A stretch of DNA of 64,000 bases, taken from Lytechinus pictus (taxonomy: Eukaryota). Location: positions 6,264,001 to 6,328,000 of the forward strand of contig NC_087245.1 in NCBI RefSeq assembly GCF_037042905.1. The letters run 5' to 3'. Shown one piece after another: positions 13,841 through 61,640 of this stretch; the first letter of the stretch is position 1, and each line of letters begins with the position of its first letter. A program made the translations under genes and the position numbers. A model generated the notes under the pieces. It was not told the origin of the DNA and did no database searches. It saw only the letters and a list, made by a program, of their open reading frames with translations.

Positions 13841-14359
13841 TAAGTGATAATTACTTTATATTCCTAAATAAGCATTGGAAAGTTACTGGAACATGCACAA
13901 TTAAACAGTGGCATGCATAAACAGCATAATTTTTAATGCTTACTTGTGTACATGTAGATTTTAAGTGAAATGTCCAGTGGCCTTGACCAAAAAGAACCCC
14001 TTTCACTACCAGTGGAAGTTTAAAGCAATTATAATGCCATCTAATGAATGCTGGTACATGTGCATATAGGTCCTACATGTTCTTACAATGAAACTGTTAC
14101 ATGTATTAAATGCAGTGTTAATCATGCCTTCAATAATGAATCTTGTTCATTCTTTAACTATTTTGTCAAGAGATATGTGTTAGAACAAAATTGAAGAGGA
14201 GATTCTTTACCATGCCTCTATTGAACTATACATGTATCTAAATCCCTCAATTTTGAAGGATGGTTTATTTTTTTGTTACTTACATGTACATGTAGGTATA
14301 AAAGATGAAAGTATGAAACTGGTATCATTGAAAAGCTTGATTATTCCTCTTTGATTATA

Positions 14360-14465: not shown

Positions 14466-14679
14466 TTTAATTAATTATTTACAATGAAGTGCCATCTGCT
14501 GTGATTATGACATTATGGAATGTGCAGTTTCCCTGAATAGGGAAAGTCAGAAGTGGAATGTTCCAAAATGCAATGTTTTCTAACCAGAGTCTCCATTTCT
14601 ATAGAATTTTGATCATGAAGGCAGGTGATGTTGAATGTTCTGCTTGTAGTGAAGGCTTTCATAAAATTATCAGTATTAA

Positions 14680-15281
14680 AGGGATGCGCCAGGCAGAAAA
14701 TATTTCTATCTAAATAGATAGAGCAAAATTCACAGAGCAAAATGCTGTAAATTTTATCAAAATCTGAAAACAAATAACAAAGTTATTGAATTTTAAAGAT
14801 TTGCATTATTCCGGTGAAACAGTTCTAGGCATGTCATCATGAATATTCATTTGGTGGGCTGATGATATCATATCCCCACTTGTTCTTTTGTATTTTATTA
14901 TATGAAATTAGGTTTATTCCAAATTCTTCTACCAAGAACTAAAACAATTGGATTTATAACTGAAAGTGCATTAGTTCTTTATTGCTGCAACTTAATTCAT
15001 CATAACGGAGACACATCATTTACACATGTATGAAAAAATGAAACATTAATGATTTCAAGTAATAACATGAGAAAAAAGAAAGTGGGAATGTGACATCATC
15101 AGCTCGCCTAATGAATTTTCATGACAATATGCATATAACTGTTTTCACAAAATATTTATAAACTTTAAAATTCAATAACTTTGCTATTTGTTATCTGATT
15201 TTGATGAAATTTTCAGCATTTTGCTCTGTGAATTTTACTCTAATTATTTAGTTATAAATATTTTCAGCCCGGACCATCTCT
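14680..15281. mobile_element. Kolobok-like MITE family B, related to family A
   Basis: TTAA both sides; termini AGGGATG / CATCTCT; internal similarity to 33307-33896 and ~5090-5555. Confidence 0.85.
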
Positions 15282-16084
15282 TTAATGAGACTAACATCTC
15301 ATCTTTTTTTTTAAATTCAACATCCTAAAAACTGTTTGAAATGACAAGGTTCAAAATTATTCCAAACACATTCAATCCATTGCGCCAATGAGAATTCACA
15401 ATGTGGGATTTTCAGGCATCAATGCATCAACATCGTTCAAACTTGGTCCACCCTCGAAACAATGGGAAATTCGCTATTGGAAAGAACAAATTTTGCAACA
15501 TTTCACTTTTGACATTGCTGCACATTTATCATGTCTGTGCATTCAATGATAATATTTATAGCATTACAATTGACACATGACTGTAAGGAGGAATATTCAT
15601 GCTTTCAAATGATACCACTTTTACAACATGATGATGGCACACTAAGAATATCATCAATGCTCAAACTTGAGTTGCAGAACTGTTTTTGAGGGGTTTATAT
15701 AGTACCTGTGCTTTTGCTACAGTGAAATAATCATGCACGGTGGATCAATTTCATTTTATAGTAGAAATGGTTAATATTTTAAATGTATGGTCTCTATAGA
15801 TAGCAAGGTAATTTTGCTTTAAATCCCTAAATTTCTTTTAGTTGGTTTGTCATTTTGAGTTCTGGAAAAAAAATTGTATGTGTAAATATGACAAATTAAT
15901 TATTTTTTATTTGTGTTTCATCATAATATTATGAACAGTATTTGCTAATTAATTTTTTGCCATGAATCTACCAATGACGAATGCTGAAAGTGAAAAGTGA
16001 AATTGACAAATCGATAGAAAGATTATCAGCTATTTAATGATACTATGGAATTTTCAAGCATTTTCGAAATTATAATTATGTCCA

Positions 16085-21656: not shown

Positions 21657-22190
21657 CTGTAGAAAAATAACATCTTTAGACCTATTGAAAGTAAGTATTA
21701 AAGAGCACCTTCAAATATCATGAAATACACTTGACTATTTGCAGCTTTCTCACACTAAAAATATTAGTTTTTGGTGGATAAACAGACATAAAAAAAACCA
21801 TAGGAATGAAATTCGAAATGAAGCGTCTTCAATTTTACCTACATGTACATGTTTTCTATAAAACCCCTAAAAAGAAAAAAAAAATAGCTGAAATGTAGCC
21901 TGGAATGAGCTCACATCTTATTTAGATAACAGTGAAACACAATGAGCATTCAGGAGGCATAAACATGTGAAATACGGTTCAAGCAGTGTTCATAAAGAAA
22001 AAACTTTTGAAATCAAATTCACTGTAGTAGAGATACTGAATACAGGTGCACCGATTAAAGGTACTAATAGTCGTTGCCATGTTTTAACATGAATCAAGCT
22101 TTAATAGTGTTTTTCACAGAAGTATTCCCACCTTGTCAAATGAACACTGATTTGTACAGTCTCTACCAAATACATGTAGTATGCAGTTAA

Positions 22191-22798
22191 AGGACAAGTC
22201 CACCCCAACAAAAAGTTGATTTGAATAAAAAAGAGAAAAATCCAACAAACATAACACTGAAAATTTCATCAAAATCGGATGTAAGATAAGAAAGTTATGA
22301 CATTTTAAAGCTTCGCTTAATTTCACAAAACAGTTATCTATATGCACATCCTGGTCGGTATGCAAATGAGGAGACTGATGACGTCATCCACTCACTATTT
22401 CTTTTGTATTGTATTACATGAAATATGAAATATTCTAATTTTCTCCTCATTGTCAAGTGAAACAACGATTAATTCCTCCCTGAACATGTGGAATTAGCAT
22501 TTTTTAATACGGTATGATTTAGTCAACTTGGTCCTTATTGTCAAATCTGTAAAAAATGAAATATTGTAGAATTCAAACCATAAAAAACAAAAGAAATAGT
22601 GAGTGATGGACATCATCGACTGGGTCATTTGCATGACACTGAGTTGTGCAGATCACTGTTTAGTTAAAAATAAGCAAAACTTTAAAATGCCATAACTTTC
22701 TTATTTTACATCCAATTTTGATGAAATTTTCAGCGTTATGCTAATTTGATTTTTCTCTATTTATTCAAATCAACATTTTTCTGAGGTGGACTTGACCT
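22191..22798. mobile_element. Kolobok-like MITE family A
   Basis: TTAA TSD and matching TIRs. Confidence 0.9.
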
Positions 22799-23109
22799 TT
22801 AAGCTCTGGGTTTAGATTGAATCAAGATTTTAATTTCACATCATTTCAATTTAAACAAAAATAATATTCAACAGGAATAAATTTCAATCTTGATAGATAT
22901 CATCTTGTGATCATTGAGCAAGGGGCATTGCAAATGTTTCATGATGTACAGGAAGTGTTTTTCATTGTTCAACTTAAGATCCATCAATGACAAGTACATG
23001 TAGACATTTCACACTTTTAATATAAAGGATTTATACCTCATCAATGAAGAAGGGAATAAAATCAGTCAGGTCAGTAAACCAGTAGATTTATGTGTATTAA
23101 ATTATTATG

Positions 23110-23675
23110 CATAAAAAGAGAAAAATACAACACAGAACATTTCATCAAAATCAGATGTAAAATAACAAAATTATGGCATTTTGAAGTTTCACTTAATTTC
23201 ACAAGAAAAGTTGTATGTACATGTATGTCCCGGTGGGTATGCAAATGAGGGAACTGATGACATCACTCACTCACTTTTTTTTGTATTTTATTATGTGAAA
23301 TATTCTATTTATCTCCTCATTGTCCTGTGAAACAAAGTTTTATTGCTCCCTGAACATGTGGAATTACCATAATTTAACATTTTATGGTTCAGTCAAGTTG
23401 GTCCTTATTGTCAAATATGTAAAAATTCAAATATTGTATGATTCAAATTTCAAACGATAAAAAACATAAGAAATAGTGAGTGAGGGACATCATCGATTCT
23501 CTCATTTGCATGTGACTAAAAATTGTGCATATTATTTTGTAAAAAATAAGCAAAATTTAAAAATGTCATAACTTTCCTATTTCACATCCGATATGACAAA
23601 ATTTTCAGCATTATGCTTAAGTCTGATTTTTCTCTATTGATTCAAATCAACATTTTTCTGAGGTGGACTTGACCT
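23110..23675. mobile_element. Kolobok-like MITE family A, left end truncated
   Basis: Colinear similarity to 22191-22798; right end GGTGGACTTGACCT-TTAA. Confidence 0.85.
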
Positions 23676-24134
23676 TTAAGATCCATTTTGAGTTCTCTCA
23701 ATTCCTTTCCAAACATTTAATAGAAAATGTGCATTACACCACTGTATGTACATGTAGGCTCATCCGATTTAAACGCTATTAATACTGGACCATCAGTTGA
23801 AGGTTTTTCTCACAATTTGATGTCTCAAATGGCATACTCACTTTTTAAAACACCCTTATTTATAATTTACATGCAAAAATTGGTGAGTTCTTTAATACTT
23901 CCTGACTTGTTTTAATTTTCACTCTCTCTCTTTCTTAATAATACAACTGTACTCCCAGTCAGATTTGTATTTGCAATCCTTGCAGTAGTTGGTACATGTA
24001 GGTGGTGACTTTTAAATTTTGAGAAAACAGTTAAACAAAAGTAATTTTCTAATAATGAAGGGTCTATAGACAATACTAATTGTTTGAGACATTAACAACA
24101 TTTTGACATACATCATGATACATGTATATGTTTA

Positions 24135-24627
24135 AGGAGAAGTTCACCCTGACAAGTAGTTTATTGTATAAAAAGAAGAAAAAATAATAAAAATATTAAA
24201 GGATTGAGGAAAATCCATCAAAGATTAAGTTATTAGAAGTATTTTTTTTTTGATATGTGATGTCATATGCATGCAGCTTTCTACATGTATGTATCATAAA
24301 TTTAAAAAAAAATCAATGAAAATTGAAATGTCATTTTCTTAAAAAATGCAAATGTTTTTTATTGTACCTTCAGTATATCAACAGAAAAATCATTTCACAT
24401 CAGCTACTGCAAGAAAAAATTAATTCAGTCATTAAGGACCGTTAAAAAATAGAAATTAATGCATTTTATATTTATATCACATGGGGCACCTGATTTTTCA
24501 AGATGTCACAAATCAAAAACTTGAAATTCTAATAACTTTCTTAATGTTTGATGGATTTTCCTAAAACCTTAACCGATATTTTTTTTCTTGTATTTTGAGA
24601 ATGTTTTTGTCAATGTGAACTTCCCCT
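24135..24627. mobile_element. Kolobok-like MITE family C
   Basis: AGGAGAAGTTCAC / GTGAACTTCCCCT-TTAA; similar to 34904-36070. Confidence 0.8.
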
Positions 24628-24970
24628 TTAAAAAGGAGGATTTTTTTTATTAGACATGCCATGCAATAATCATATTGGAAAATGTGTCAAATGTTGCTTG
24701 CTTCTCCTATACTGATGTTCACAACAGAGGGTGCTCACATATGTTCAAACTCTGTAGATGATCAAGTACTAAACGTGTTTTTGCCAAATGATTGTGCATT
24801 CCAACACAAGAGGGCATTTACTAATTTAGAACAGATAACATATTGATGCATACATTGACAACAAGTTTATTTAATTTTAATATGAAGGTGGTGTTTCTTA
24901 ACCTTGACTTTTGCACCCCATTGCTGTAATGTCAAGGACAGCTAGTAGACCTGGCACTGAATACCTAAAT

Positions 24971-25250: not shown

Positions 25251-26371
25251 AAAATTACCATTTACATAGTTTGGAAAAGGTGATTAATTTGAATAATTTG
25301 TGTTACTTTGCAGAAAACTTGTGATTCTTATTGCAGGGACTGCAGATAACATGACCGATACAGCTACGCCCACAAAGACTTACTAGTTTATAGAGCATTG
25401 AAAAATTAATATCACTGCAGAACAATTTTTCTATAAAATAATACTGAATATCATTTTCAAGTGTTTGTGTTCTGAATAAAATTATTCCAAAACAATTTAT
25501 AATTATGTTCCGAGTGTAATGTATGTACTTTGAACAGTGGAAAAGTGATATCTTATTTCAGAAGCTCAATTGGGATTAGAATAATATGTAAAGGCATACA
25601 GATGGCAAAGAAGAAGGGTTACAAGTGTTTTTTATTCGGTAAGATGGTTTTTAGGAAAACCTGGCATGCCACTTTTTCTTTATTGAAAAAAATATCATAT
25701 TTTGGTCAATTGGTCATAGATAAACCAAACTTTTCAACTCCCTACATGTACCACTTCATATTCAAACATCCCCTTCCCTCCAAATCTTCAAAAGACGCCT
25801 TTAGGCAACACCAGATCCATTGAACAAATTAAACCATAATGACCACTGTCTTATCATGTTCTTTTTTTTTCATTGCTTGTTATGATTTTTTCTCATCATG
25901 CTTTGTCTTTGTGTTTACATATTATTTTCCTTGTTATATACTCATTTAATTTATGATTTTTTTTTTCTATGAAGAGCGTTGTCTTTATTTTTTTTCATTC
26001 ACTGTTTTTATTTCTGTATTTGTTATGTTTATCATGTATGTACATTTTGACAGGGCTCCCTTGTAAAGCAGGCCATTTGGCTTGAATGGGACAACCCTGT
26101 CTTTTAAAGAAACGTGAATAGATAGATAAATAAATATATCTTTGTCTTCCTGTTTGGTGTTAATGCATCCACTATTATTGGCTTTGCATGAAAAATATAT
26201 TTCAACAGCGAATGTAATTGCCATGACTGAAAAGATGGGTGATATTAAGATGAAATTATTTATTGTGTAACCACAACCCACTTCACAGCTCGCAGTGAGA
26301 TAATAATAAAAATAACTGAAATGAAAGGAAAGAATTGCATTAAATCAATCTCTTCAAGAGTTCCTCCTTAC

Positions 26372-26629
26372 CCTTTGGTTTAAGTGGAAGTTTAACTGCA
26401 TGCAGAGTCCTGTTATTCTCATTCCAGCCATATTTCATTGACATTGCTTTTTGATTCTGTTCTGCAGGAGATGTTGGTTGTGTGGAGTGTTGTCGTTGCT
26501 GTGTCAAGGGGTGTGAGGACTGTTTTTCTGGTAGTGGCAACAATGTCTTGTCAGCATCGTCCCCTGATTCAAACCATGCAAAGCTTCCAGAAAGACTGGA
26601 GAGGCTGGACAGCATGGACAAATTGGAAC
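26372..26629 (-). CDS. Coding exon, 258 bp, phase 1-1 (SNLSMLSSLSSLSGSFAWFESG...LPLKPK)
   Basis: Open frame; acceptor TTTTTTCCTTTGCCTAG|, donor AGG|GTAAGG; phases match both neighbours. Confidence 0.8.
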
Positions 26630-29102
26630 CTAGGCAAAGGAAAAAAGGCATAGTGTTTTAGAAACTTGTGATGGTGTTTATAATCACAATCATCATAAAT
26701 CAATACCAGATTATATCTATTTTTTTTAATGACACGCTGTTATCAAATGAGAAAAAAGGACGATTGACTTTAAAGCATGAAGCACACCCTCTCTCCAAGT
26801 GAAACTGATCATCAAGTCAGTGAAGTGCAATTATAATGCTCATTCAGCTGGAGGGTGTGCTAGATATCATTAATCATTGATATAAAAAGCAGATTAAGTG
26901 ACAAAATGTCATAAATGGAAAGTACATTTAATGAATACTTCTTGGAAGCTAAAAAAAAGAGGAAGAAGTGATGATTACATGTAGTGCAGGGAGTGCTTTT
27001 AAAATTGCACTGAAAGAAAAAAAAGTTTACTTTATAAAATTTTTTTTCAGAAAGCATTTTGAGCTGTGTAAATGGGGCAATTTGAAACCTTGCCAAGCAA
27101 TGTGGGTAGGGGAATCATGGGGCTATCTGGGGTTTAATTGGTGATTCATACCTTACCTACCATGAAACTAGTATTGATAGGAACAAACTCCTACACAGAC
27201 AAACCACATGTCTGTTCAAGAACAAGAATCATGGACAAAAACAAAATGTACAACATGTATTGTAAGAACAGAATGTTGCATGCCTGCAGGTAATTCAATA
27301 TGCATAACACTGTACACTGTCTACTACAAAGTGGAATACCATTTAAATTTTCAATAATTATGAATGAAGAGCCCAATTGAAGTATAGAAAATTTGCTCTC
27401 TTTTTGCACTGCCTTGCAAGGGCCTATATTTCATATGGATGTACAATCAGTATATCACCATATTCATTGAGGATAATGCAGTAAATCTTAAATGGTGCAG
27501 CTTGTACAAGTGTATTTTGTTTCAGTTTTGGTTCATGTGCCAGTATTCCTTTAGCATACTTTCAATTCTTTTTACTGATGACTTTGTTTCTAAAAATAGA
27601 AAGCAAACAACCTACATGTATTAGCTTTTCAATATCAAAGTTTGAGGTTTAGCACATTAACAGGAACAAAGCACAATTTGATAACTTTATAGCTTTTTAT
27701 ATGAAGTTAATGCATTGCCAACACCTTGTCTGTCACCAGAACCTACCCAGCCTGATGGAACTGTAAGCTTACAAACTTTAATATACATTTTTTTTTAACG
27801 ATGAAAGCAATAATGTTTTTTTTTTCAGGCTTCTAAAAACATTGAAATTCAAATTTTTATTTCAATGAAAAGGAACTCTAAAAAAGGCATCTGAAAGCTT
27901 GGTTTACATGCAGAATAAGATTATTTTCTTGCTTAAATTCTATTAGATCTCATGATTTCATGAAGGCTCCAATTTAATATATTTTTCACAACAGAAATCA
28001 CATGCAATTTTTAGATAATCTGAGCTTTCAGTATTAATTACAGACGCCCCTATGTACAACATGACAGCCTTTGTTACATGTAGCAGGAGACATCATTCAT
28101 ATAAAAAAGGAATCAGAAAATGAGGAAATTTGGTACAATTGAACTGATAATAAATCTGAAACCTGAAACTCAGTGTAATTCAATAAAGAACATTTTATGA
28201 CTACATGTAGGAACATGAATATTAATGGTTTCCATTTTCCTGCTTAAAAAAACAGATCTCATTTGGTGAGATGCCATAAGAATCCGGAAAGGAAAATAAA
28301 CTGATATGAAATAGCCTTTAAGCATCATTAATGACCATACATGTAGAATGGAATTTCCCATTTACAAAAAAAAAAAAAAAATATGCAGCAAATATTTCAG
28401 CTGGTACATGTACTGTATGCATGGAGTCTTGTATGTATACAATTAAAGTAGCAAAGTTTTGTATCAAAATCTCATACCACATTCATTTACAGGAATCTGT
28501 TTTCTAATCTACAAATACTATGATATCAACGCTATTTATTTGTAGGGCATTACTATAGAACAAAGTCCAATCCATGTTTGATTACAGGTTTGCTTGATTT
28601 CCTGACATGACCATGGAATAGACGTGGAGGCAGCATGGTAATCAAGAAATATGACTCCTAATTTCATAAACATGAGGGTACTAAGGAATAACTGACATAT
28701 CTAACAAGAATAAAAGGGACAACATTACACAAAGTAATACCAAAAAGTAATAATCCACTACTATACATGTACATGTACATGTATGTCATAACTGATGATT
28801 TATTTTTGACAGACAATTACTGTTGATATAATTTTCAATTCCTTGTAATGGTATCTATAGAAAATTTCCTTTCAGTTCTTAACAGGAAAATTATATTTTT
28901 CAGCTCATGACAAACTTTAAAAAATAGCCAAAAGAGCAATGCAACTGTCTTCTTTTTTTTTTGCTCAAGTACTGGGAAATGGCTAAATATGTATTAAGGA
29001 AAAGCCACAAAATGCTTTTACCATTGCTGTATGGCAAAAGATAAGGGTAGATTGCTGATATTTCCATTATTAAAAATGTCAGACTTCAGAAATCAAACTC
29101 AC

Positions 29103-29675
29103 TTGAAGTACTTGGGACACGTTTCTGTGATGTCATCCCCTCTGCAAAGCTAAGACTCCCAGACTGAGTGAAATCTCTCCGTCTGTCATAAACCTCAGAC
29201 CAGATCCGTTGCCTTTTTGCCTGACCGATGTTCTTGTTCTGAACCTCTCCTTGTATCGGTGGCTCTGGAATGATTGGGAGAGCGTTGACGTAATCTGCAA
29301 CGCGTTTCCATGAACGGTGGCTGGGTGGCAGCTCCCGTCTCTTTTGGTCTAGGATGCGTTTCTGTTCATCGATTTCCGGCTCCATGGAAGGAAAGAAGAC
29401 ATCGGTATCGGACTGAGCAGAGTTGCGTCTCTCTTCAATGAAATCAGAATCACTGGTCATTTCTGAACCACTACGGAATGTAGACCTGGAGCTACTGTGA
29501 CAGTTATTACCATTCAATGTTTCCTCCCTCTCAAGGTATTCCTCAAGTGTTTCCCCAGTTCTCTGTTCCTCATCTGCACTACTACCAATACGGTATCTGC
29601 CATTGCTGATGGTGTTACCATGGAAATCACTTGACTCCTTCTTTACATTTGTGCCTGTGGTGCTTCCAGTTCTCC
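29103..29675 (-). CDS. Coding exon, 573 bp, phase 1-1 (GRTGSTTG...KRVADYVNALP...KRVPSTS)
   Basis: Open frame across 191 codons; acceptor TTTTTTTATAACTAG|, donor CAA|GTGAGT; GC above flanking introns. Confidence 0.85.
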
Positions 29676-30132
29676 CTAGTTATAAAAAAAGAAAGAAAAA
29701 GAACCTTACGAAGATATTGAGGATGCCAGTACATGTACGTAAATGTAGTTATTCAGCCATGGCTGATGACATACCTTATAATCAGATTTTTTTTTTCTTA
29801 AATGAATTTCAAGAAAGCAAAGTAAGTTGAACCAGTACATTTGGTGTGTGACCTCTAGATCATTCACTATGAGTTGAAGTTCTGTCATTGTACTTTGGTA
29901 TATAATACAGGTAGATAAAAACCATGTATAAAAGCTATTTTATACCATGATACCAGATTGGTGTCTGGTACTTTGCTTGACACTGTCAGTATCCAGTTAA
30001 AAAACTTCTCAGTTAGTGACTAATATGCATTTATTGGCAATATCCTATGACTGAATAAAGGTATCTAATTCAAGATGGAAAGTGTGCTATACAAATCTCA
30101 TGTATTATAATTATTATTACCTTTTGTATTAA

Positions 30133-32867: not shown

Positions 32868-33896
32868 AGGGATGCAGACCTGCCAACCTCTGGCAATGAA
32901 AAAGTGTATTCTGTGATAAAAAAAAGTGTATTTTTCCCCAAAAAAGTGTATTTCATAATAAAATGTGTGGCGCACTCCCTCATCGCGGCGCTCAGGCTGC
33001 ATGCAAGCTAAAATGCGCACTGCTCTTGCAGATGAAAAAGAAAAAACATTTAAACACGTGTATATCTCACCCTGGTTTTAACAAAATGATTGAAAAAAAA
33101 AAACAAGTTACCTAAAATTACATTGGTCTAATAACCATATTTGTGTAAGTTTTATGAAATAGAGACATATAGAGATGATTTTTCTCAATAAATTACGATT
33201 TTGTAAAAACAAAAAAAAACATATTTTTTAAAGAAAAAACGTACTGCCGTATTTTGGTTGCAAAAACGTACTAAATACGCCAAAAACGTACTGGTTGGCA
33301 GGTCTGGGGATGGTCGGCGATAAATTATTTATAGCTCTAAATAAATAGAGTAAAATTCACATAGCATATTGCTGAAAATTTCATCAAAATCGGATAACAA
33401 ATAACGATGTTATTGAATTTTAAAGTTTACAAATATTTTGTGAAAATAGTTAAATGTACATATGAATATTCATTTGGTGATGTCACATCCCCACTTTACT
33501 TTTTCTTAAATGTTATTACATGAAATCATAAATGTTTCATATTTTCATACTTGTGTAAATGATGTGTCTCCATTATGATGAAATAAGTTGCGGCAATGGA
33601 TAACTAATGCACTTAATCAGTTGTCAATCCAATTATTTTAGTTCTTGGTAGAAAATTTTCGAATAAACCTAATTTTATATAATAAAATACAAAAGAACAA
33701 GTGGGGATATGACATCATCAATCCATCTAATGAATATTCATAAAGATATGCCTAGAACTGTATCACCAGAATAATGCAAATCTTTAAAATTCAATAACTT
33801 CTTTATTTGTTATCCGATTTTGATCAAATTTTCAGCATTTTGCTTAGTGAATTTTACTCTATTGAGATATAAATATCTCCAGCCTGGACCGTCCCT
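32868..33896. mobile_element. Kolobok-like MITE family B with an insertion in its left TIR
   Basis: TTAA-AGGGATG [insert] GGGATGGTC...GGACCGTCCCT; similar to 14680-15281. Confidence 0.8.
32875..33306. mobile_element. Unclassified MITE with 6-bp TSD
   Basis: TIR CAGACCTGCCAACC / GGTTGGCAGGTCTG; TSD GGGATG at 32869-32874 and 33307-33312. Confidence 0.85.
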
Positions 33897-34420
33897 TTAT
33901 AAAACCAAGAACTTAATTTACCAGTCCCTTGGATGCTTTACTATTAAGCTGATATTTCTTTTAAAACAGTCACATGATCTTTAATTTGCAATTTATCTGG
34001 TAAGATAAAGATTAAAGTAAGGGATTGACATTTGTGACTACGAATGGATGGCACTTCATGAGGATTCCCAACATTTAGATGTAATTGCTTGTTGACTTTC
34101 TGGTGCTCTGGGGTAAATCAAGTTGACGGGTAACTGATATCCCCATCCTACTGATTGCTTGTCACCGAGGGGACCATTTTGTTGACACTACTTGAGAAAA
34201 CTCAAGGAAAGAGATCGCTGCAGAACTTCTTTAAGTTACACGGCACATGGATTAGGTTTCATCTGAGTCTGCATGCCAAACATCAACCATAGAGTTCAAA
34301 TGGAAGCTTAACAAACATATTACCAGAAACTGGAGATACTGATTTACATGAACTGAATATCAGGTTAATGAATTCTATGATGTGCCTTGGTAAACAAGAT
34401 GGTCTTTATATACTGTAGTA

Positions 34421-39286: not shown

Positions 39287-40036
39287 GACCCCCGTTACAT
39301 CTGAGAGATTCCCTACCTCGGGCCGGCCCGGGGCCTACCTCGGGTCGGAAAGAAATCAGATGTAAACATCCCAAACCTACCTCGGGCCACCTTTTAGCGA
39401 ACCAACCCGAGACCACATCCAGAGGTAGTCTCGGGTAGGTATCGGGCCGGCCCCGATCCACCGATTCGTAGATGTAAACGCACACAAGCTTTCGAACCTA
39501 TCTCGGTCCGTTCGCCAGCTGTCAAATTACGTCATAGCGCGCGCTATCCCCTCCCCAGCCCCGTCGCTCTTCGAATGTTTTGCGGCATGCGAATTGTGAT
39601 TGATAAAGTCTTTGATGTGAGTGGAAAGAAGGAAGCATTTTAAAATTATCCTTTTCAAGTCGATCATATCTTCAACGACTTCTGGGATCATCAGCATTCT
39701 TCCAGAATCTCGGGTAAAGGTAAAGAGTCGTTTCGACTCTCTCTGGAAATGATCGGCACATGTCCCACCCTGTCAGCCGACGAGTGTAACGAAATGTAAA
39801 CAACTCAATTAGCGCGCGCAAATTATTCAGAGCCTAGATCGAGAGCGCCCTTTGGTGTCAGCAATCGGATACCGCTCAAAACCGTACCGATAGGGGAGGG
39901 AATGATCGCTGTGATGTAAACAGACCACATTTCGGACTCGGTCCGTTCGCGAAGCTAATCCACCAATAATCCAGTCAAGGTTGCAAGTGGACTCGGTCAG
40001 GTCTCGGATAGGAAACTTTCAGATGTAACAGGGGTC
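39287..40036. mobile_element. GC-rich TIR element (Harbinger/ISL2EU-like or TA-targeting)
   Basis: GACCCCCGTTACATCTGA / TCAGATGTAACAGGGGTC flanked by TA; internal GATGTAAAC and CCTACCTCGGG repeats. Confidence 0.8.
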
Positions 40037-40744
40037 TAAGGCTTGTTTTCACTAGCCTAAAGATGATTTCTACATGTAAATGCTTATTCTAGTACAGCTA
40101 TTTTTTAATATTAAGCACTACAGTTTATAAACCAAAACACCTACAGTATTGGCCACTTCGCCATTGTAATTCACCCAAGCAACAATCATCCTTTGATATG
40201 AAATATATATTTGTTATCACACATGATAATTGGCAGAAGACTGCATGTACATGTACACTTTATCCTTTTATACTGGAAATTCCTGTGACATACCAAATGA
40301 CAACACAGAAATTCAACTCATGTACATGTATTTTAAAAACAGTCGAGCTTGCTTCAAGGAGTTTAATGGTAATACAGCTCATCATGAGATCTCATTGTTC
40401 ATCAAGGCTTATACCCTGTTTATGCTTTCCGTTAAGTTTTCCTACTTGAATAGGCCTTTAAGAGTTCAGGAACCTCAAGTTATGCCTTTTAAAATACACT
40501 GTTCGGCAGATTTTGAGGGAACTTTTGAATGACTCAACAGATGGTTTTATGATTATGGTAGCTTTGGCCATACATACTTGTAGGCCTACATGTGCATGTA
40601 CAAATGTAATTTTTTTGGGGTGAAATCTTGAAAGCCAATCGAACTATTCCACCTACCATTCCAATAATGGCAGTAGAATCCCACATTAGTCCCCATGGCT
40701 TACAAAGTAAACAGAACTATACAGTTCAATCTGACTGATCATTA

Positions 40745-45197: not shown

Positions 45198-45577
45198 TTA
45201 ACACGCTATATTTTATAATGAAATGCATAAAACTTGATAACTACTGTATTCAGTATTAAAAATCACTTGACTTTACCCTCAAATGAAGCAGAAAACAAGA
45301 AACAAGTAAACCTGCAATACATTTTACAAATTCTCACTTCGCTGTAATGTACGGTATATATACAGTTAGACATCTACTGACAGACACAATAAAAGCAATA
45401 TTGCTTTTTGTGATCACCCCATATTTATTTGCACCAGGTCATAAAGTCCCAACACGTTCTTGAGTGGGTGGACAAACACCCAAATAATTAAAGTTCTATC
45501 ACAAGGGCTACTTCCTATAATTACACTCTTTATTCATTCAAAGGTGTGCAGAATAAGTTTGGGTGTTCTATGCTTAA

Positions 45578-46171
45578 AGGTCAAGTCCATCCCAGAAAAA
45601 AATTTATTCGAATAAATAGAGAAAAATCAAACAAGCACAACATTGAAAATTTCATCAAAATCAGGTGTAAAATAAGAAAGTTATGACATTTTAAAGTTTT
45701 GCTTATTTTTCACAAATTTATACACACAACTTTAGTGATATGCAAATGAGAGAGTCGATGATGCCCCCCCCCTCACTATTTATTTTGTTATTTATTGTTT
45801 TGAATTATACAATATTTCATACAGATTTGGCAATAATGACCAACTTGACTGAACCAAAAACATGTTAAGACAATGGTAATCCACATGTTCAGAGAGGAAT
45901 AAGTCTTTCTTTAAAGTATTTCATATAATGAAATACAAAAGAAATACTAGTAGTACTTTATTAAAAAGTGGGTGACATCATCAGTCCCCTCATTTGCATA
46001 CTGACCAGCATGTGCATATTCCTGCTTTGTGAAATTTTCCCGCTTTGCGAATTTTTATAATATAATAACTTTCTCATTTTATATCTGATTTTGATGAAAT
46101 TTTTAGTGTTATGCTTGTTGGATTTTTTTCCTTTTATTCAAGCCAACTTCTCGTTGGGGTGGACTTGTCCT
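45578..46171. mobile_element. Kolobok-like MITE family A
   Basis: TTAA TSD and matching TIRs. Confidence 0.9.
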
Positions 46172-48144
46172 TTAAAGATAACCAGGATGCATTTTCTTTT
46201 TCAGAAAAATACCTCGTGCTCTTATACTGTAGGAGCAAATCAATAGAAGCAAAAAGAAAAAAAAAATGATTCATATTCATACAATCACTCGTAAGCTTCA
46301 TGGACCTTACAAAAGAAGAGTGAAGGTATGTAAAATGTTAGATGAACTACAGTATAAATACAAATAAAATTTCAATTGTAATTGAAGTTTTGAAAGGGAA
46401 ATTAATTGTAATTGTAATTGAAAAAATGTAATTGATTTCAATTATTGTCAATTACTTTTAATTACATTCAATTACTTTACAATAAACTTAATTTATGATT
46501 TAATTTCATGACCATTTTCATGTCAACTGCTCCAGCATCAAATAGAGTATCAGGCAAAATCTGTGTTCTTTCAACTACTCTGTAACTTAGAATTATGTTG
46601 AAATAGGTGGTACTATGTACAGAATAAAAATTGTTATAATTTATGACTTTTCTAGAAAGTAATTGAAATTGTAATGTACCAGAAGAAAGATACATGGATA
46701 TACCATTGTTAAATTAAGTGATTTCTGAAACAGAAAAGCCATGGTATAAAGAAGAACATCTCAACAAATATCAAAATTAACATTTACTGCTATTTGGCTG
46801 GATACTTTTTAACAGAGACAAATTGAACAGAACTGGACTTTGAGAGGGTGTGGGTCTTTTTTTGCACAGTAACAAAAAGAATACCTGTACTTTATCTGCT
46901 GGCTCTTTGTATCTTCTTTAAAAAAAATCTTTATTGCCTTTTGGTGTCAAATATTATGCTTGACTTGTCAGGTGATCACCTACAATGTAATCGTGTATTT
47001 ACAGGTCACAATAGTAATAGACAGAAGTCATCATGCTATATTTCTAACAAAACAACAACTCTAAAATGAAATAATGAATCATAGCATTAAGGTACACGCA
47101 GCCCTGAAGTCTTCATCCATTCCATTCACATGAATACATATGTTAATGCTATGAAGATTTTAAAAACTGTTCATGTCCACAGGTTTTCTAATCTACAGTA
47201 TAAACATTGTTTTTTTCTTGTTTGTTTTCTTACATGTAAATCACTTATCTTTTTCTATTCATTAATTCATCCTAAACTCTATTCATTTTGTGTACATTAG
47301 GTTTTTGTAATTCATTCATTCTCTCTTTTCTTTATTTTATCCCAATTATCATATTACTCAAAGTTATTAATTCAAAATATTGTTCATTTATTCAGCAATA
47401 TTTAATATTTTTTGCCCTTCTCAATTAATAAATTTCCACAAATCAAAGGTACATGTAGTCTCCATAGTCTACAAAGTACCGGTAGACTAAAGGGGTCTAT
47501 CACCTTTGAAGAGACCTGTTTTTTTGTTGTTGTCATTCTGAACATGTTGGATCATATTGGACTATGTATGAGGCATATTTGAAATCCTCATCGGTAATCA
47601 CAAGGGTTGGGCTCAATTACGTAATAAATTGCATTTTTTTAGTATTGCAAGTTTAATTGCAAGTTTTAAAGGGAAAGCAAAATGTAAAAATTTTGAGGGA
47701 AAAAAAATGACTTCAAATACAGTAGGCCTACTGGTATTTGTATTTTATATTCAATTACTTTGCAATAAACTACCGGTATCTAGTTTACTCTGGTTTGCAT
47801 ATTGCCTAAATTCATAATTTTGAGAAAAAAAAGAAAATCTACATGAATAAACATTACACTACTGTATGCTGTTTATATAAAAATCTCAGGCCCATACCTT
47901 GAAAATCTTTATTGTTAAACATGAATATCTAAACTTGGCTCTAGCCTCTAATGCAGCCCTTGATTGATATACTGTATCCTACATGTAGTTTAATACTGAA
48001 GCTAGCTCTGCTTTGTGAATATATATAAATGTGCATTTTTCAATTTTCAGGGAGATGATATTTATATTAGCATGAAGGCATTTGCAGATCCGGTATGTGG
48101 GGGCCAAAGCGCCACCCCCCCCCCCCCCATTGTGGCAACAACAA

Positions 48145-52260: not shown

Positions 52261-54732
52261 ACAAGTGGAGCGCCTCTAGCAGTCTCACCTGCATCACGCG
52301 ATTCAATATAGCAGCAGTGCTAACTTTGAAAACTGCTATAAAATAATTATTCACAAAAAACACCATTTATATAATGATACAATACTATGTTCATTGACAA
52401 TAAATGACATTTGACCTTGATCATGCGACCTAAGACTTGTCAGTGATACTTGATTACCCCTACATGTATATCCACATTTTATAAGGTATAAACTTTGAAA
52501 GTTATGACAGCAATCTAATAATTACCTCCAAAATGGCCAAAGTTCATTGACCTTAAATTACCTTTGACCTTAATCATGTGACCTGAAACTCGCACAGGAT
52601 GTTCAGTGATACTTGATTACTCTTATGTCTAAATTTTATGAACTAGACCAATAAACTTTCAAAGTTATGATGGTAATTCAACAAATACCCCCAATTTGGC
52701 CAAAGTTCAATGACCTTTGACCTTGATCATGTGATCTGAAATTTGCACAGGATGTTCAGTGACACTTGATTACTCTTAGTCCAAGTTTTATGAACTAGAC
52801 CAATAAACTTTCAAAGTTATGATGGTAATTCAACAAATACCCCCAATTTGGCCAAGGTTCAATGACCTTTGACCTTGATCATGTGATCTGAAATATGCAC
52901 AGGATGTTCAGTGATACTTGATTACTCTTATGTCCAAGTTTCATGAATCAGATCCATAAACTTTCAAAGCTATGATGGTGATTCAACAGATGCCCCCCAA
53001 CATGACCAAAGTTCATTGACCTTGGACTTTGGTCATGTGACCTGAAATTTGCACAGGATGTTCAGTGACACTTGATTACTCTTAGTCCAAGTTTTATGAA
53101 CTAGACCAATAAACTTTCAAAGTTATGATGGTAATTCAACAAATACCCCCAATTTGGCCAAAGTTCAATGACCTTTGACCTTGATCATGTGATCTGAAAC
53201 TCGCACAGGATGTTCAGTGATACTTGATTACTCTTAGTCCAAGTTTTATGAACTACATGGAGACCAATAAACTTTCAAAGTTATGATGGTAATTCAACAG
53301 ATACCCCCAACATGGCCAAAGTTCATTGACCTTTGTCATGTGACCTGATATTCGCACATGATGTTCAGTGATACTTGATTACTCTTATGTCCAAGTTTCA
53401 TAAATCAGATCCATAAACTTTTAAAGTTATGATGGTAATTCAACAGATACCCCCAACTTGACCCTAAAATAAATGACACTTGATTACTCTTAGTCCAAGT
53501 TTTATGAACTAGACCAATAAACTTTCAAAGTTATGATGGTAATTCAACAAATACCCCCAATTTGGCCAAAGTTCAATGACCTTTGACCTTGATCATGTGA
53601 TCTGAAACTCGCACAGGATGTTCAGTGATACTTGATTACTCTTAGTCCAAGTTTTATGAACTACATGGAGACCAATAAACTTTCAAAGTTATGATGGTAA
53701 TTCAACAGATACCCCCAACATGGCCAAAGTTCATTGACCTTTGTCATGTGACTTGAAACTCCGGCAGGATATTCAGTAATACTTGATTAACCTTATGTCC
53801 AAGTTTCATGAACTAGGTCCATATAATTTTTTTTTAAAGTTATGATGACATTTCAAAAACTTAACCTTAGGTTAAGATTTTGATGTTGATTCCCCAAATA
53901 TGGTCTAAGTTCATTGACCCTAAATGACCTTTGACCTTGGTCATGTGACAAGAAACTCAGGCAGGATGTTTAGTAATACTTGATTAACCTTATGTCCAAG
54001 TTTCATGAACTGGCTCCATACACTTTCCAAGTTATGATGTCAATTCCAAAAACTTAACCTTCGGTTAAAGGACAAGTCCACCCCAACAAAAAGTTGACTT
54101 GAATAAAAAGAGAAAAATCCAAAAAGCATAATACTGAAAATTTCATCAAAATCGGATGTAAAATAAGAAAGTTATGACATTTTAAAGTTTTGCTTAATAT
54201 CACAAAACAGTTCTATTCACATCCTGGTCGGTATGCAAATGAGGAGACTGATGACGTCATCCACTCACTATTTCTATATGAAATATGAAATATTATAATT
54301 TTCTCATCATTGTCAAGTGAAATAATGATTAATTCCTCCCTGAACATGTGTAGATAGCATTGTTTAATACTATATATGGTTCAATCAAGTTGGTCCGTAT
54401 TGTCAAATCTGTAAAAAATGAAAAATTGTATAATTCAAACAATAAAAACAAAAGAAATAGTGAGTGATGGACATCATCGACTGGCTCATTTGCATGTCAC
54501 TGAGTTGTGCACATCACTGTTTTGTGAAAAATAATCGAAATTGTTAAAATTCCATAACTTTTTTATTTTACATCCGAATTTGATGAAATTTTTAGCGTTA
54601 TGCTAGTTTGATTTTTCTCTATTTATTCAAATCAACATTTTTCTGTGGTGGACTTGACCTTTAAGATTTGGTGTTGACGCCGCCGTTGGAAAAGCGGCGA
54701 CTATAGTCTCACTCTGCTATGCAGGTGAGACA
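52261..54732 (-). mobile_element. Helentron/HINE-like element with a long ~152-bp tandem array
   Basis: subTIRs GTCTCACCTGCAT / ATGCAGGTGAGAC; terminal hairpin 54706-54731; GCC microsatellite; about 10 units (GATGTTCAGTGA at ~52598, 52752, 52903, 53057, 53209, 53360 and onward). Confidence 0.85.
54069..54660. mobile_element. Family A MITE nested in the HINE
   Basis: TTAA TSD; empty-site paralogue CTTAACCTTAGGTTAAGATTT at ~53860-53880. Confidence 0.92.
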
Positions 54733-55611: not shown

Positions 55612-57015
55612 CAGGGTCACCAGACGTCCTGTATTTCCCGTGATCGTCCCGTATTTTGCTCCTTTGTCACGGCGTCCCGACAAACCCTTGCCGGGATGCC
55701 TATTTGTCCCGTATTTCATAATATTGAACAAAATGTAGTTAATACATTTAAAAGTGACAAATTTTCATCAAACAACCAACAGATGACGAAGCAGAGACAA
55801 CAATAAAATCGATCATTTAACTTTTGCAAGTTCTGCTGTGATTTTCTTGCTAACCCAATAATACATTGCAAACGAACTGGCCTTCTGCCTGTGTGTGGCA
55901 GGCTACTAGCTAGCTAGGCATGTAGGATCGGAGCAGATTCTCAATGGTGCAAACAATAACATGATAAACAGTTTTCCACCAAAATAATCACAAAATCGGC
56001 GGGAAATTTATATAACTATATTATGGATTCTCAGATTACTGATTTGGAGATGTAATCGGAGGAACAAGTTACTGAGTTTTCATAACTAGATCTAATTGTT
56101 TCAGATTTCGTTTTGAGTCTTGTTGTGTATGATGCCGCGATCTAATTTCTAAGTTGACAATGTTTCACTTTGAAATTTCTAAAACATTTTAGTTTTTTTT
56201 AATTTTAAAAATATATTTAAAAAACACCAAATATCATTATGATTTTTGTTAGATGATCGGATTGTTTGTTTTTTTAAGTTTGAACTTTTTTCCTCTTTCT
56301 TTCTTTTATATCCTTCTTTCTTCATCCTTCTATTCTTCTGCTTGCCCTTTTTTGTTCCATCTATCTTTATTTCCTATCTTAATGTTCTATCTGTCTTTCC
56401 TGATCCTTTCACTCTCTCTCTGTTCATTTTTCCTTCTTTCTCTTACCTGCCTTCTAAAATTTTCTTCATTCTTTCTTTCCTTTAAACTTTTCTTTGCTTC
56501 TTTTTCCCTTCCTCTCCTTTTCATTTTCGTTCTTTCTCTCCTTCCATTATTTTTTGTTTCATTCTTTCCTCCCTCTCTTTCCTACTTTCTTTCATTCTTT
56601 ATTATGTTTTTCCTTCTAACCCTCCCTCCCTTCCATTTTTCTTCTTTCTTTGTTTCTTTCTCTCCTATCTTTTCCTATTTTGTCTTTCACACATTTATTC
56701 ATCTTCCCTTCCTTTCTTTTTCTTTCTTTCTATATTCAATTCAAAGAATGACGGAAATCTTATTTCTCTTTTTTATTCTTTCTTTCATCCTTCTTTAATT
56801 CTAACTTTCTTTTTTATTTTTTCCTTCATTTTCCCCTTCATTTTTTTCTTCTTTCTTCTCAATTCATCTCTTTTCTTTCTCTCCTTCATTCTTTCGTTCA
56901 CCCTCCCTTCCAATTCTTTATATTTTTTTCACAAGTCTACTACTGTTTAGCCTTCTTTGATGATTTTTTTTTGTCGCTTGTCTCGTATTTCATTTTGTGA
57001 AATTTGGTCACCCTG
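55612..57015. mobile_element. hAT-like non-autonomous element with a pyrimidine-rich interior
   Basis: TIR CAGGGTCACCA / TGGTCACCCTG; perfect 8-bp TSD GGCACATA; inserted into a fragment homologous to 10194-10244. Confidence 0.85.
56285..56920 (+). repeat. C/T-rich low-complexity tract
   Basis: Near-continuous TTC/TTTC/CT runs. Confidence 0.9.
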
Positions 57016-57429: not shown

Positions 57430-57965
57430 ATTGATTTCGTCGCTGTCTATTCTCTACTCGCTAAAACGGTAACCAGCGTGGAAAAGTCCCCTTAGAGTTG
57501 TACACACTGGTTCCCATTTTAGCGAGTAAACTAGTTTTATCTACTCGCCTAAATGGGAACCAGCGTGGAAAACTCCCCATAGAGTTGTACGCGCTGGTTC
57601 CCATTTCAGCGAGTAGATAAAGACAGATTACTAATTATATTTATTTTGTTAGTGATGATCTCTGACAAAATAATTAAATCTCACTAATAAACTCGTGAAA
57701 ATGGGAACCAGCATGTATAATTCAGAAGAATTTTCTTAGGTGGTTCCCATTTGAAGAGTAGATATAAAGAGAGATTGCCAATGATTGCCAGTGATTCTGA
57801 CGAAATGAATCTCACTAATAAAAACTGTCTTTATCTACTTGTGAGAATGGGAACCAGCATGTATAATTCAACTGGTTCCCATTCTGAAGAGTAGATAATA
57901 AAGACAGATTACCAATGAGATTTATTTCGTCAGTGATGATTATGACAAAATAAATTTCACGAGTA
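57430..57965. repeat. Tandem array of alternating hairpins
   Basis: Four AATGGGAACCAG...CTGGTTCCCATT-type stems at ~57453, 57540, 57692, 57834. Confidence 0.8.
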
Positions 57966-58398
57966 CCGTATAGAGTTTAATAAAGTGATTCATCCCCATA
58001 TAGGTCTATATCTTGTTTGTGATTTATTTAGTGATTTGATTTTGTAAAAATTTTTTGTCAACATTGTGAAAGTGGCAGAGTGGTCTTGAAGAAGAGCAGG
58101 GAAATGCATGGTAAATGTATATAAATACAAAAATTATAATTCTGCGGAATCGTCAATGTCATCTAAAAACTTGTCCACTCATGGCAATCTGAGCCCGATA
58201 AATATCGCATAAAAAGAAGTAACCAGTTGTGTGAGGAGCTTCGCATCGTAAACAAAGCCTTTCGCATCAATTCTTTTCAAAATCTCCAAAGCGAAGTTTC
58301 TTTACAATTATCGTGGTGAAAGGAGGTACAAATTCGATTTGGTGACAAGTTCCCAAAGGCCAAAAGCACGGAATGGCTCCTCGATCTATATCTTGTCT

Positions 58399-58450
58399 AA
58401 CCCACGGAGCTCCGGCCCGCTCGTGGGCCGGAGCTCCAGCTCCCTGGGTT
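58399..58450. mobile_element. 52-bp palindromic mini-element with 9-bp TSD
   Basis: AACCCACGGAGCT...AGCTCCCTGGGTT flanked by ATCTTGTCT (58390-58398, 58451-58459). Confidence 0.75.
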
Positions 58451-58519
58451 ATCTTGTCTTGTCTTTCTAGTTTCTGTAGTCATGCCAATAGCCATTATAC
58501 TGTTAATGCCCACAATCAT

Positions 58520-58948
58520 CAGTAGAGGCGCACGGCCAATATTGGAGACTGTCTCCAATATCAGAGACTTTTGTAAAGACAACCCGGTATCCAATTTCAG
58601 AGACAGTCTCCAGTTTTGGAGACCAATTTCCTTTGTTTACATTTGCTGCAAAAGGATTACCTTGGCGGCAAATAAAAATGTGATAAGCAGATTCCTCATG
58701 AAAAATTACCCCTTTTCACCATCTACTTTACAAATTCACCGTCTACTTTTGTTTTGATAAGGATTTTTGTTGTCAATCACACACAAAACAAATGGGCTTC
58801 TGACCTCAGTGAGACAAAATTTTGGGTGAAAAAAATCATGCTTTTGTTGGTGTTGTTTCTTTTGTCCTTTTGCAAAGCAAGTCTCCAATGTGGGAGATTG
58901 TCTCCCCAATTGGAGAGAGTCTCCCATATTGGCCATGCGCCTCTACTG
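58520..58948. mobile_element. Unclassified MITE with 5-bp TSD
   Basis: TIR CAGTAGAGGCGCAYGGCCAATAT; TSD ATCAT; subterminal GGAGAC/GTCTCC repeats. Confidence 0.85.
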
Positions 58949-59178
58949 ATCATTAGGCCTAGGCCCTATATTGATTATTATGGCATATGAACGTCTAACC
59001 CTGCGCGGGCGGGAGCCCAGGAGCTTACCGTGTATTTGACCATAGTCACCGGACTAGGGTGATTTATGGTCTAAATATTTCTCCAAATGAATTGTGAAAA
59101 CAGAAAGTATACAATTACCACGATTATATGGATGAAGGTCTAATGAGTGGCAGTTTCCTGACATCTGGGCACAGACTG

Positions 59179-59307
59179 GAACCTCAAAAAAACGAAAAGT
59201 TCTCTCCTTCTACCCCCGTTTCGATCGGCCATTTTTGTTAAAAATCGTAACAAAATGGCCGATCGAGACTGGGGTAGAGGAGAGAACTTTTCGTTTTTTT
59301 GAGGTTC
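59179..59307. repeat. ~129-bp near-perfect palindrome
   Basis: GAACCTCAAAAAAACGAAAAGTTCTCTCC... / ...GGAGAGAACTTTTCGTTTTTTTGAGGTTC. Confidence 0.9.
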
Positions 59308-61055
59308 ATTAACCCAGGGAGCTCCCTGGGTTATACCTCAGGCGTAGTTCGTGCAGGCTCCACTCCACTTCACTACCGCTACACTACGCTCCACCTACCC
59401 GAACATCGGGACAGTGAACTAGATCGGATATTCCGAGTCATAAAAGGTGGGATGGCAATCATGGTTATCGTAAAAATTAAAGAAAAAAAATATAAAGAGG
59501 GATATGAATGACTTAATATCTTACTTTACACCCGTATTTCACTCCGTGTCCATCCTCCGGTTATCCTCAAAATTGGTGATTTTGGGCCAGTATCTTTTTC
59601 CTCACACGTATTCTATTATTCACGGCCGATTTCAAAACATTGCATGCGATCGCGATCGATCAGCGACCGATCGCATGCGATGTTTTGAAATCGGCCATGA
59701 ATAATACGTGTGAGGAAAAACATACTGGCCCAAAATCACCAATTTTGAGTATAACCGGAGGATGGACACGGAGTGAAATACGGGTGTAAAGTAAGATATC
59801 TGGGGCCCGTTTCTCAACACATGGACAAGTTAGTCATATCTTTATCCACCAACCACGGAGTTAGTTCCAATCTTACTAAACATGTTTCTCGAAAGGTTTC
59901 CTAACTAGAATACCTTGATATCGATACTATCGGTAGAACGAGCAGACGAGACGTAGCCTTAGTCACAAAATAGCATAATATTAAAAAAGAAAAATTATTA
60001 CAAAATTGCAAATATTGTGATAAATTGGGAAATAAATCTTTTCAAAATAATAGCACAGGTGAATTATGCATCATACATACTTAGACCATGAAGACTTGAG
60101 CATTCAATTGCAGAGAAAATTAAATTATGAATAATTCATTTCATGACTAAAAAATCACTTGTGGACGTTGAGATTGGGTACCCCCGGGATATCCAATTTC
60201 AATAGTTTACGAAAGTAAACCATAACGGTTTTCTTTGTAAAATGATGATAATTATGCGGTCTTTTACGATTCCGAACGTCATCAAAATATAGTTTAACGA
60301 AACATTTTTAACCATTGATACCGAAACATACGATATTTGACAAATTATATGCATAAATTAGAGATTAGAATTTATCCAACTGTTAATAGGGGTCTGAAAA
60401 CAACAAATACGAGTTCAGTTATGGATGGCCTGACGTGGTAGAATATTTATCGATTAAATCATTTTACTATTTCAAAATGAATGGTTTTGTGGCGTTTTAC
60501 CAATAGTTTTTATAGTTTCTTTGTATTACAATTATCATTGAATGCATTAACCCACTTGTTTTGTGATGTAATTTCAACCTCTATGATTGATTACGTAAGA
60601 TTATAATTTTAAAATTTATATGCGCTTTTGCATGTCATAGTCTACCCACGTGATGCCACTACGTCATTAAGAAAGAAGTTATGACAGGTTCGGAGGTGTC
60701 ATGAATATTTAGTGAGGTTGTTGTACCCGATCTTGGTAAAGAGGGCTTCGTGAAACGGTTAGCGGACAAGTAGCTCACTATCTCCGATTTAGTCAAGAAG
60801 TTAGACTTATGACGGTGTTGAGAAACGGGCCCCAAGTCATTCATATCCCTCTTTATATTTTTTTTCTTTAATTTTTACGATAACCATGATTGCCATCCCA
60901 CCTTTTTATGACTCGGAATATCCGATCTAGTTCACTGTCCCGATGTTCGGGTAGGTAAGGGTAGGTGGAGCGTAATGATGAAGCGGTAGTGAAGTGGAGT
61001 GGAGCCTGCACGAACATCGCCTGAGGTACCGGGTACCTGGGTTAATGAACGTCAA
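59299..61055. repeat. Large nested inverted repeat (foldback)
   Basis: Outer arms 59299-59514 / 60834-61055; inner palindrome 59516-59799. Confidence 0.9.
59803..60832. mobile_element. Harbinger-like MITE inside the foldback
   Basis: TIR GGGCCCGTTTCTCAACAC / GTGTTGAGAAACGGGCCC; TSD not clean. Confidence 0.85.
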
Positions 61056-61119
61056 GATTGACTTGACCAAAATATACATGATATATAACATAGCCCACGG
61101 TCTTCATGGTCTTGCCTCT

Positions 61120-61640
61120 CACTCAGACTTGGCGCGCTGGTGTGGCTTCACGAACTGACAAAGTCAACTCAAAGAACCAGACCGCCCGGGCATTATTTCG
61201 AATTCGAACACTGCGGTGAGACCCCGGCCGGGGAGCACAGGGTAAGATCTGTACCACGGCACCGGTCACCGGCACCATGCACCAGCACAATAGTCAATAC
61301 GTTCTGAACTTAGTTTAGACAGTTGAGAGGCGTCAAGTATTTCGGCAATGCAATAGAGGTCGATTCATAAAATAGAGCAACTTACCAATAATGTACCGGT
61401 TGAAATTAACCAATAAACAATAAGCTTACAGGATACTGTCTTCGAGCAGAACTAAAGTCCAAAAATTAAGTTCACTCAAAAGTTGCACAAAGTTCGGTGG
61501 CGAGTGTCGAAATATGAAACTTTTTTTGTAAACATCACACATAATTTAGGCGCGCACGCGTGGCGCATACGTATACGGTATAGGTACGAACAGCCCATAC
61601 AGCCTCGTATGTACAGTAGCAGCGCGCGGAATATACTAGC
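61120..61640. promoter_or_regulatory. CpG-rich promoter-like region
   Basis: Local CpG enrichment in unique sequence (e.g. GGCGCGCACGCGTGGCGCATACGTATACG at ~61549-61577) flanking the putative first exon. Confidence 0.5.
61386..61500 (-). other. Probable non-coding first exon (5' UTR) of the minus-strand gene; 5' boundary approximate
   Basis: Strong donor TG|GTAAGT at 61386/61385 inside a CpG-rich, repeat-poor island; no long ORF. Confidence 0.55.

Follow-up and report, generated by a model that had tools for sequence, protein, structure and literature searches.

Three nested families of gene-less DNA transposons mimicking a single foldback element beside a probable first exon of Lytechinus pictus

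Architecture of the locus

The locus lies near the right end of the window, i.e. the whole stretch of 64,000 nucleotides of Lytechinus pictus DNA that was analysed (contig NC_087245.1, positions 6,264,001 to 6,328,000 of the forward strand), and all coordinates below are positions in this window (Table 1). It holds three repeat families with defined ends, one inside another: an outer element, E, contains a palindromic element, X, which in turn contains a third, H, and the outermost of them is bracketed by a perfect target-site duplication (TSD). The nesting that a preliminary description had reported from the sequence is thus borne out. E with all its insertions runs from 58996 to 61044, beginning with TAACCC and ending with GGGTTA, and the longest stop-free frame between these limits has 77 codons. 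An Rfam search of the nest gave no match.

The limits of the elements were drawn from other copies. Four public sequencing runs out of 24 were compared with 58900-61600 at 82% likeness, and copy ends and junctions were taken from those listed, 24 of 1312 loose ends and 15 of 109 joints. The four runs yielded no second, full-length E or X complete with its two flanks, and BLAST within the window found no further copy of X, of H or of the part of E at 59010-59307. In the runs, repeat depth drops to 0-59 from 61084 onward. Searches of viral, metagenome and prokaryote collections with end and internal motifs returned 12 loci, each matching only a pattern of about 16-20 bases and none of them related. 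The five end motifs had no match in the literature; the families may already carry names in Repbase or Dfam.

Table 1. Features of the nest and its surroundings (positions in the window).
Feature	Position	Strand	Basis
Left TSD copy of E (ATGAACGTC)	58987-58995		perfect direct repeat with 61045-61053
Right TSD copy of E	61045-61053		perfect direct repeat with 58987-58995
E core, non-coding, 338 bp, ends TAACCC...GGGTTA	58996-59333		ends and TSD from sequence; depth in public runs
129-bp palindrome, internal hairpin of E	59179-59307		copies cross its left edge; no TSD at its edges
Right end of E with adjacent flank, copied in inverted orientation (short; last part a 24-bp palindrome)	59299-59333		sequence
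Second 9-bp repeat, left copy (CCTGGGTTA), E's last nine bases, probable TSD of X	59325-59333		perfect repeat
X, palindromic MITE, ends TACCTCAGG...CCTGAGGTA	59334-61028		loose ends of copies, spanning contig, arm identity
Central hairpin of X (inner arm ends and loop)	59516-59799		single-stem fold as DNA and as minus-strand RNA
H, 1030-bp Harbinger-group (NuwaI-like) MITE in right arm of X	59803-60832		terminal inverted repeat, flanks of copies
Seven extra bases between right end of X and second 9-bp repeat	61029-61035		sequence; most listed copies stop at 61028
Second 9-bp repeat, right copy, present outer right end of E	61036-61044		perfect repeat with 59325-59333
Probable non-coding first exon of host gene	61386-61520 (5' edge approximate)	-	stranded RNA reads, sequence

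The outer element E

The nest had been described as lacking a flanking TSD, a statement that is contradicted by the perfect 9-bp direct repeat on either side of E; the repeat was missed because its right copy sits inside what had been taken for the right arm of the foldback. On both strands of the window, the 9-mer ATGAACGTC has just these two occurrences. Between 58900-59350 and 61000-61110 there are four direct repeats of seven bases or more, two of them with nine. When the end motifs of E are taken as given, a perfect 9-bp repeat surrounds one of the 20 ordered end pairs in the window, against 0.00016 expected by chance. A looser scan of the window for any 9-bp repeat combined with a 6-bp terminal inverted repeat (TIR) yielded five hits versus zero to three in 20 shuffles, and the TSD test therefore rests on the ends of E being known independently.

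They are so known because two other sequences display them. A sister mini-element of 54 bp (58398-58451), 545 bp away from E, has the same ends, folds into one hairpin and is flanked by a direct repeat of 7 bp, or of 9 bp if the repeat may overlap the end by two bases; it either derives from the E family by deletion or was left behind by excision of a member. In run X15, a contig carries the same left-end motif upstream of a part that matches 59005-59140. In addition, depth over 58991-59354 is repetitive in all four public runs. The left end of E is degenerate, with just six terminal bases matching its right end, and the 24 loose ends listed out of 1312 do not include the ends of E itself. In run X1, one contig of 354 letters (depth 3.1) agrees with 61045-61414, and six of its letters stay unplaced exactly at 61045; stopping where it does, this one contig fits an allele without E and may be taken as a hint of one.

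Two further structures belong to E. The 129-bp palindrome inside it is real (54 matches, two mismatches and one gap), but it is not the separate palindrome abutting the left edge of the foldback that it had been thought to be, as other copies continue past its left edge upstream. We regard it as internal to E because upstream E sequence runs through that edge in contigs, joints and one loose-end row, and because copies without the left arm of the palindrome exist, as seen in two of the joints listed (59165 to 59252 and 59189 to 59252). No TSD was found at its edges. The second structure is a short inverted copy of the right end of E together with its flank: of the 11 bases at 59299-59309, 10 agree with the reverse complement of 61045-61055. 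In the preliminary description, the arms owe their outer 20 bases to 59299-59318, which leads into the 24-bp palindrome of E's end. A local template switch, at a time when the end of E still touched its TSD, would account for this copy.

The palindromic element X

Among the loose ends listed, copies of X diverge at two places: before 59334, which every one of the four runs shows (31, 2 and 10 contigs; 68 reads), and behind 61028, shown by at least two of them (37 contigs and 50 reads). The flanks at both limits are unlike, with an agreement of 0.38-0.68. X is placed between these two positions because copies stop matching there and continue into unlike flanks. The foldback that had been drawn from 59299 to 61055 does not exist at that extent, the repeat family ending at 59334 and 61028 instead. 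X has arms of about 325 bp and takes in both the arms and the 284-bp core of the earlier account. Those arms (59299-59514 and 60834-61055) do align, at 87.4% over 230 columns, but their outer limits were misplaced; similarly, the palindrome of about 720 bp envisaged after removal of the inner MITE is continuous, but measures about 662 bp, the length of X without H.

The core at 59516-59799 is near-perfect, as had been stated, with 128 matches, four mismatches and one 5-base gap. The DNA fold of 59500-59815 has a z-score of -30, with none of 100 shuffles as stable, and the core hairpin as minus-strand RNA one of -32 against shuffled controls. The inner arms (59393-59512 and 60836-60956) match at 120 of 120 bases with one gap, and between the outer arms there are three indels and three substitutions. 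At 59439-59506 this copy of X differs from most placed copies at several positions while both of its arms are identical there, as a young subfamily or arm-to-arm conversion would explain.

Arms and core form one family, since a diverged contig spans their junction and joints link the tips of X to its core. The contig in question, 262 bases long, is placed whole on 59379-59640 with 24 differences and 12 gaps; several of the joints listed connect X tips with core sequence. Short family members join both tips directly with 9-30 letters between them (joints 59402 to 60988/60993 and 59410 to 60986). On the same two observations, contig and joints, the idea that the core palindrome inserted separately, into a TTAA in the middle of the arms, is not supported. 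Loose ends at 59179, 59299, 59307, 59515/59516 or 61055 do not occur among the 24 of 1312 listed. In run X2 the depth rises about tenfold, from roughly 250 at 59506 to roughly 3000 at 59518, and loose ends inside the X arm show an agreement of 0.68-0.9, as diverged relatives would; we read the depth step as reflecting subfamilies of X, an older modular origin of the element being a possible alternative.

A piggyBac MITE at 59313-61041 was also considered and rejected. TTAA together with CCC...GGG is present at 59309-59315 and 61039-61045, yet the family ends at 59334 and 61028, and the left TTAA site belongs to the inverted copy of E's end.

The long palindrome could be imagined as a one-off local inverted duplication or an assembly artefact, given that the inner arms are identical over 120 bases where this copy departs from most others and that no contig of the four public runs spans the whole stretch, but this is extremely unlikely in view of family ends at both palindrome tips in independent runs, short members that join the two tips, outer arms with three indels and three substitutions between them, and an intact outer TSD that brackets the entire nest.

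The innermost element H

The inner MITE had been called Harbinger-like, and this assignment has stood up well: H has a perfect 18-bp TIR beginning with GGG (18 of 18 bases, 59803-59820 and 60815-60832), and the flanks of its family fit a CWG target. Among the loose ends listed, five rows concern H: its copies diverge from this locus at 59800 or 59802 on the left and at 60833 or 60834 on the right, and in every one of the five the neighbouring letters make up a CTG or CAG. The NuwaI group of the PHIS (Harbinger) superfamily is defined by a CWG duplication and a TIR of 12-61 bp starting with GGG (PMC4482050); the TIR of H agrees with this, as does the target that the family flanks suggest. H differs in being non-coding, with a length of 1030 bp, and in that the two triplets flanking this copy are unequal. 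The hosts enumerated for the group are fish, beetle, crustacean, mollusc and anthozoan, with no echinoderm among them (PMC4482050).

The triplets of this copy, CTG (59800-59802) and CAA (60833-60835), differ at two bases, in spite of the CWG target of the family and of surrounding arms that are identical apart from this. In mirror image the intact arm of X reads TAA at the site of H, and the two triplets are spaced as a 3-bp duplication would be. Their inequality could stem from mutation or from the repair of an insertion into a target that did not match the consensus.

A contig of run X2 (joint 60833 to 59332) brings an end of H, the right-end motif of E and the left end of X together within about 40 bases. 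This order is unlike that of the present locus and hints at another locus or a rearranged allele, and at shared hot spots.

Proposed history and the duplication made by X

We propose, with a probability of about 0.8, that the locus arose by three successive cut-and-paste insertions of the gene-less DNA transposons E, X and H, their transposases being encoded elsewhere; each of the three would have been moved by a DDE transposase. Firstly, E entered the intron and duplicated 9 bp, the copies of which flank it today. While the right end of E still lay beside its TSD, fold-back or template-switch repair may then have copied that end and about ten flanking bases in inverted orientation, giving rise to 59299-59333. 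Subsequently X, a self-complementary MITE with the boundaries described above, would have entered the right tip of E, where it most likely duplicated E's last nine bases. Finally H, a CWG-targeting MITE of the Harbinger group judging from its boundaries and the target of its family, would have entered the right arm of X; its insertion is placed last because it is nested inside X.

The long hairpin is the long TIR structure of X and calls for no separate mechanism. The nest as a whole is a tidy case of ordinary MITE nesting, in which stacked elements pose as one foldback without a TSD. The idea that the layers had inserted into each other's symmetry centre is not supported for any of them, as X lies at the tip of E and H about 140 bp off the centre of X, and the arm/core junction of X, shared with a diverged copy, lends it no support either. 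MITEs within MITEs are common, and in rice more than 10% of 6,600 MITEs are present as multimers (PMC5172404). The present nest resembles them in having MITEs inside MITEs, here within an intron close to a gene start, and differs in that three families are combined within 2 kb and that one of the three is self-complementary throughout.

The target duplication of X deserves closer attention. The second 9-bp repeat, CCTGGGTTA, adjoins X on the left, whereas on the right it lies seven bases beyond the element, and these seven bases may be filler, an end duplication or an older footprint. The right-end motif of E is single in the mini-copy 58398-58451 and in one other contig, where unrelated flank follows. 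Because both have the motif once, the doubled end of E most likely arose when X inserted, and it is on balance probable that X made a 9-bp TSD.

A tentative alternative retains the same nest and takes X to be a Tc1/mariner-type MITE with its terminal TA as the TSD, which inserted into an already doubled end of E. X begins and ends with TA, and the other copies listed stop matching at those TA bases; a TA duplication is the norm for IS630/Tc1/mariner elements (PMC10045372), and no filler beside X is required. The second perfect 9-bp repeat would then need a separate origin, and the single right-end motif in the mini-copy and in one other contig argues against a doubling that preceded X. We accordingly treat a TA duplication as the less favoured outcome, and consider it very unlikely that X left no duplication.

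Relationship to known transposon groups

For E, and probably X, the best fit is with non-autonomous elements of the AcademH type, an assignment to which we give about even odds. AcademH belongs to the Academ superfamily. AcademH ends start with a pyrimidine followed by a purine; E and X both start and end with TA. The TSD of E has 9 bp, seen in one copy, and the probable duplication of X has nine as well, although its repeat (59325-59333 and 61036-61044) leaves a gap of seven bases to where the family ends at 61028. For comparison, TSDs of 9 or 10 bp are given for AcademH in PMC10045372. The nest departs from the AcademH pattern in containing neither a transposase nor a helicase gene, and X in having the seven extra bases before the right repeat. 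E and X are not united by their termini: four of the first 11 positions differ in the best-matching comparison, and the Repbase rule for a shared superfamily allows at most one terminal mismatch (PMC4455052).

It is rather doubtful that E and/or X are of the Mutator/Foldback type instead of the AcademH type. Mutator and FB elements classically combine 9-bp duplications with long TIRs. The initial base of a Mutator end is usually G, whereas E and X start with TA; moreover, the TIR of E is very short, and X lacks internal tandem repeats, none being found from 58932 to 59965. TSDs of 4-10 bp are attributed to the groups related to MuDR and IS256 (PMC10045372), which speaks for a Mutator/Foldback origin as far as duplication length is concerned.

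A more far-reaching scenario has X as a long-armed palindromic family of an unclassified transposase or recombinase that homes to the E-type terminal motif without a standard duplication, with E, X and H repeatedly stacked at identical sites near promoters and delivering ready-made double-stranded RNA into first introns; we think this very unlikely. In keeping with it is the run X2 contig described above, in which ends of H, E and X again lie close together.

Very unlikely as well is the original proposal, a TSD-less palindromic family mobilised by a Crypton-like tyrosine recombinase or another duplication-free enzyme. It draws on the fact that a duplication in direct contact with both ends of X is obtained only by counting TA or by skipping seven bases, that the flanks of other X copies are unpairable, so that their TSDs are unseen, and that a CryptonV group is listed in Repbase. 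As set out in PMC3212892, Cryptons have neither TIRs nor long direct repeats, and at most terminal direct repeats of 4-6 bp; E, X and H all have TIRs (6 bp in E, arms of about 325 bp in X and 18 bp in H), the outer element E has its perfect 9-bp TSD, and two TSD readings fit X. Likeness to Cryptons amounts to nothing specific beyond non-coding repeats in an animal group where Cryptons occur.

With successive MITE insertions as the preferred reading, the locus supplies ends and targets for three repeat families without a match to a named entry. If X does target the ends of E, or if unequal triplets such as those of H are typical of off-consensus insertions, this would bear on target choice and donor cutting in poorly studied superfamilies.

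Host gene and hairpin RNA

The nest had been assigned to intron 1 of a host gene, and this is upheld in so far as stranded reads and donor-like sites identify a probable first exon to its right; no second exon was identified. In the RNA run X23, of which about 6% was read, first mates map to the plus strand only over 61357-61538, with depths of 12.1 and 6.65 against 0, and at a depth of 0.2-1.9 over 61084-61356. Since first mates lie on the plus strand, a minus-strand exon followed by a lower intron signal is indicated, assuming the usual type of stranded library. Donor-like sites are present at 61385 and 61429, and no ATG was seen in the probable exon. Neither 12 frames tested for the host gene nor 91 of 123 selected GC-rich minus-strand frames had a Pfam match above the cut-off; of the remaining 32, seven were already among the 12 and 25, mostly in repeats, were left out. 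Two stop-free minus-strand frames, 29086-29679 (197 codons) and 26340-26657 (105 codons), likewise without a Pfam match above the cut-off, may be coding exons of the host gene.

The suggestion that hairpin RNA could form near the first exon finds support in the predicted fold and in the minus-strand exon about 360 bp away. When X plus H is folded as minus-strand RNA, 177 base pairs join the outer arms and 132 lie inside the core, and an intronic duplex of X in the pre-mRNA is plausible on this model. The long double-stranded stems should be regarded as a by-product of the structure of X, any function being putative at most. Positions with A>G or T>C changes, divided by those with C>T or G>A, give a ratio of 1.19 in run X23 versus 0.55, 0.89 and 0.80 in the three other runs (Fisher p of 0.0004, 0.29 and 0.07, respectively); as just 65 of the 1657 placed reads are at least 99% alike, reads are not assignable to the locus and the ratio is no evidence of A-to-I editing here. 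If E is absent from some alleles, the nest would constitute a natural test of the effect of an intronic hairpin on splicing, editing and expression.

Repeats elsewhere in the window

To the left of E, a MITE at 58520-58948 has TIRs of about 46 bp that start with CAGT, and the 5-bp sequence ATCAT is repeated directly on either side of it; among the loose ends listed, the match to other copies ends behind 58948, and we take it to resemble the 5-bp hAT group. Palindromic MITEs of about 500-600 bp lie at 8200-8785, 13240-13845, 14675-15286, 22180-22805, 23108-23683, 24131-24634, 33309-33899, 45570-46180 and 54064-54670. Most have a terminal TTAA followed by AGG or AGA and are presumably Kolobok/T2-like. 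The many copies in the window show that self-complementary MITEs are routine in this genome. Two elements, at 3042-4641 and 55612-57015, look hAT- or P-like: both have 8-bp direct repeats, and their inverted ends read CA...TG and CAG...CTG. A GC-rich, repeat-like stretch at 39290-40050 contains several TACCTCGG motifs, short palindromes and repeated GATGTAAAC motifs, and an array of palindromic units at 57443-57960 has GGTTCCCATT and AATGGGAACC motifs in both orientations.
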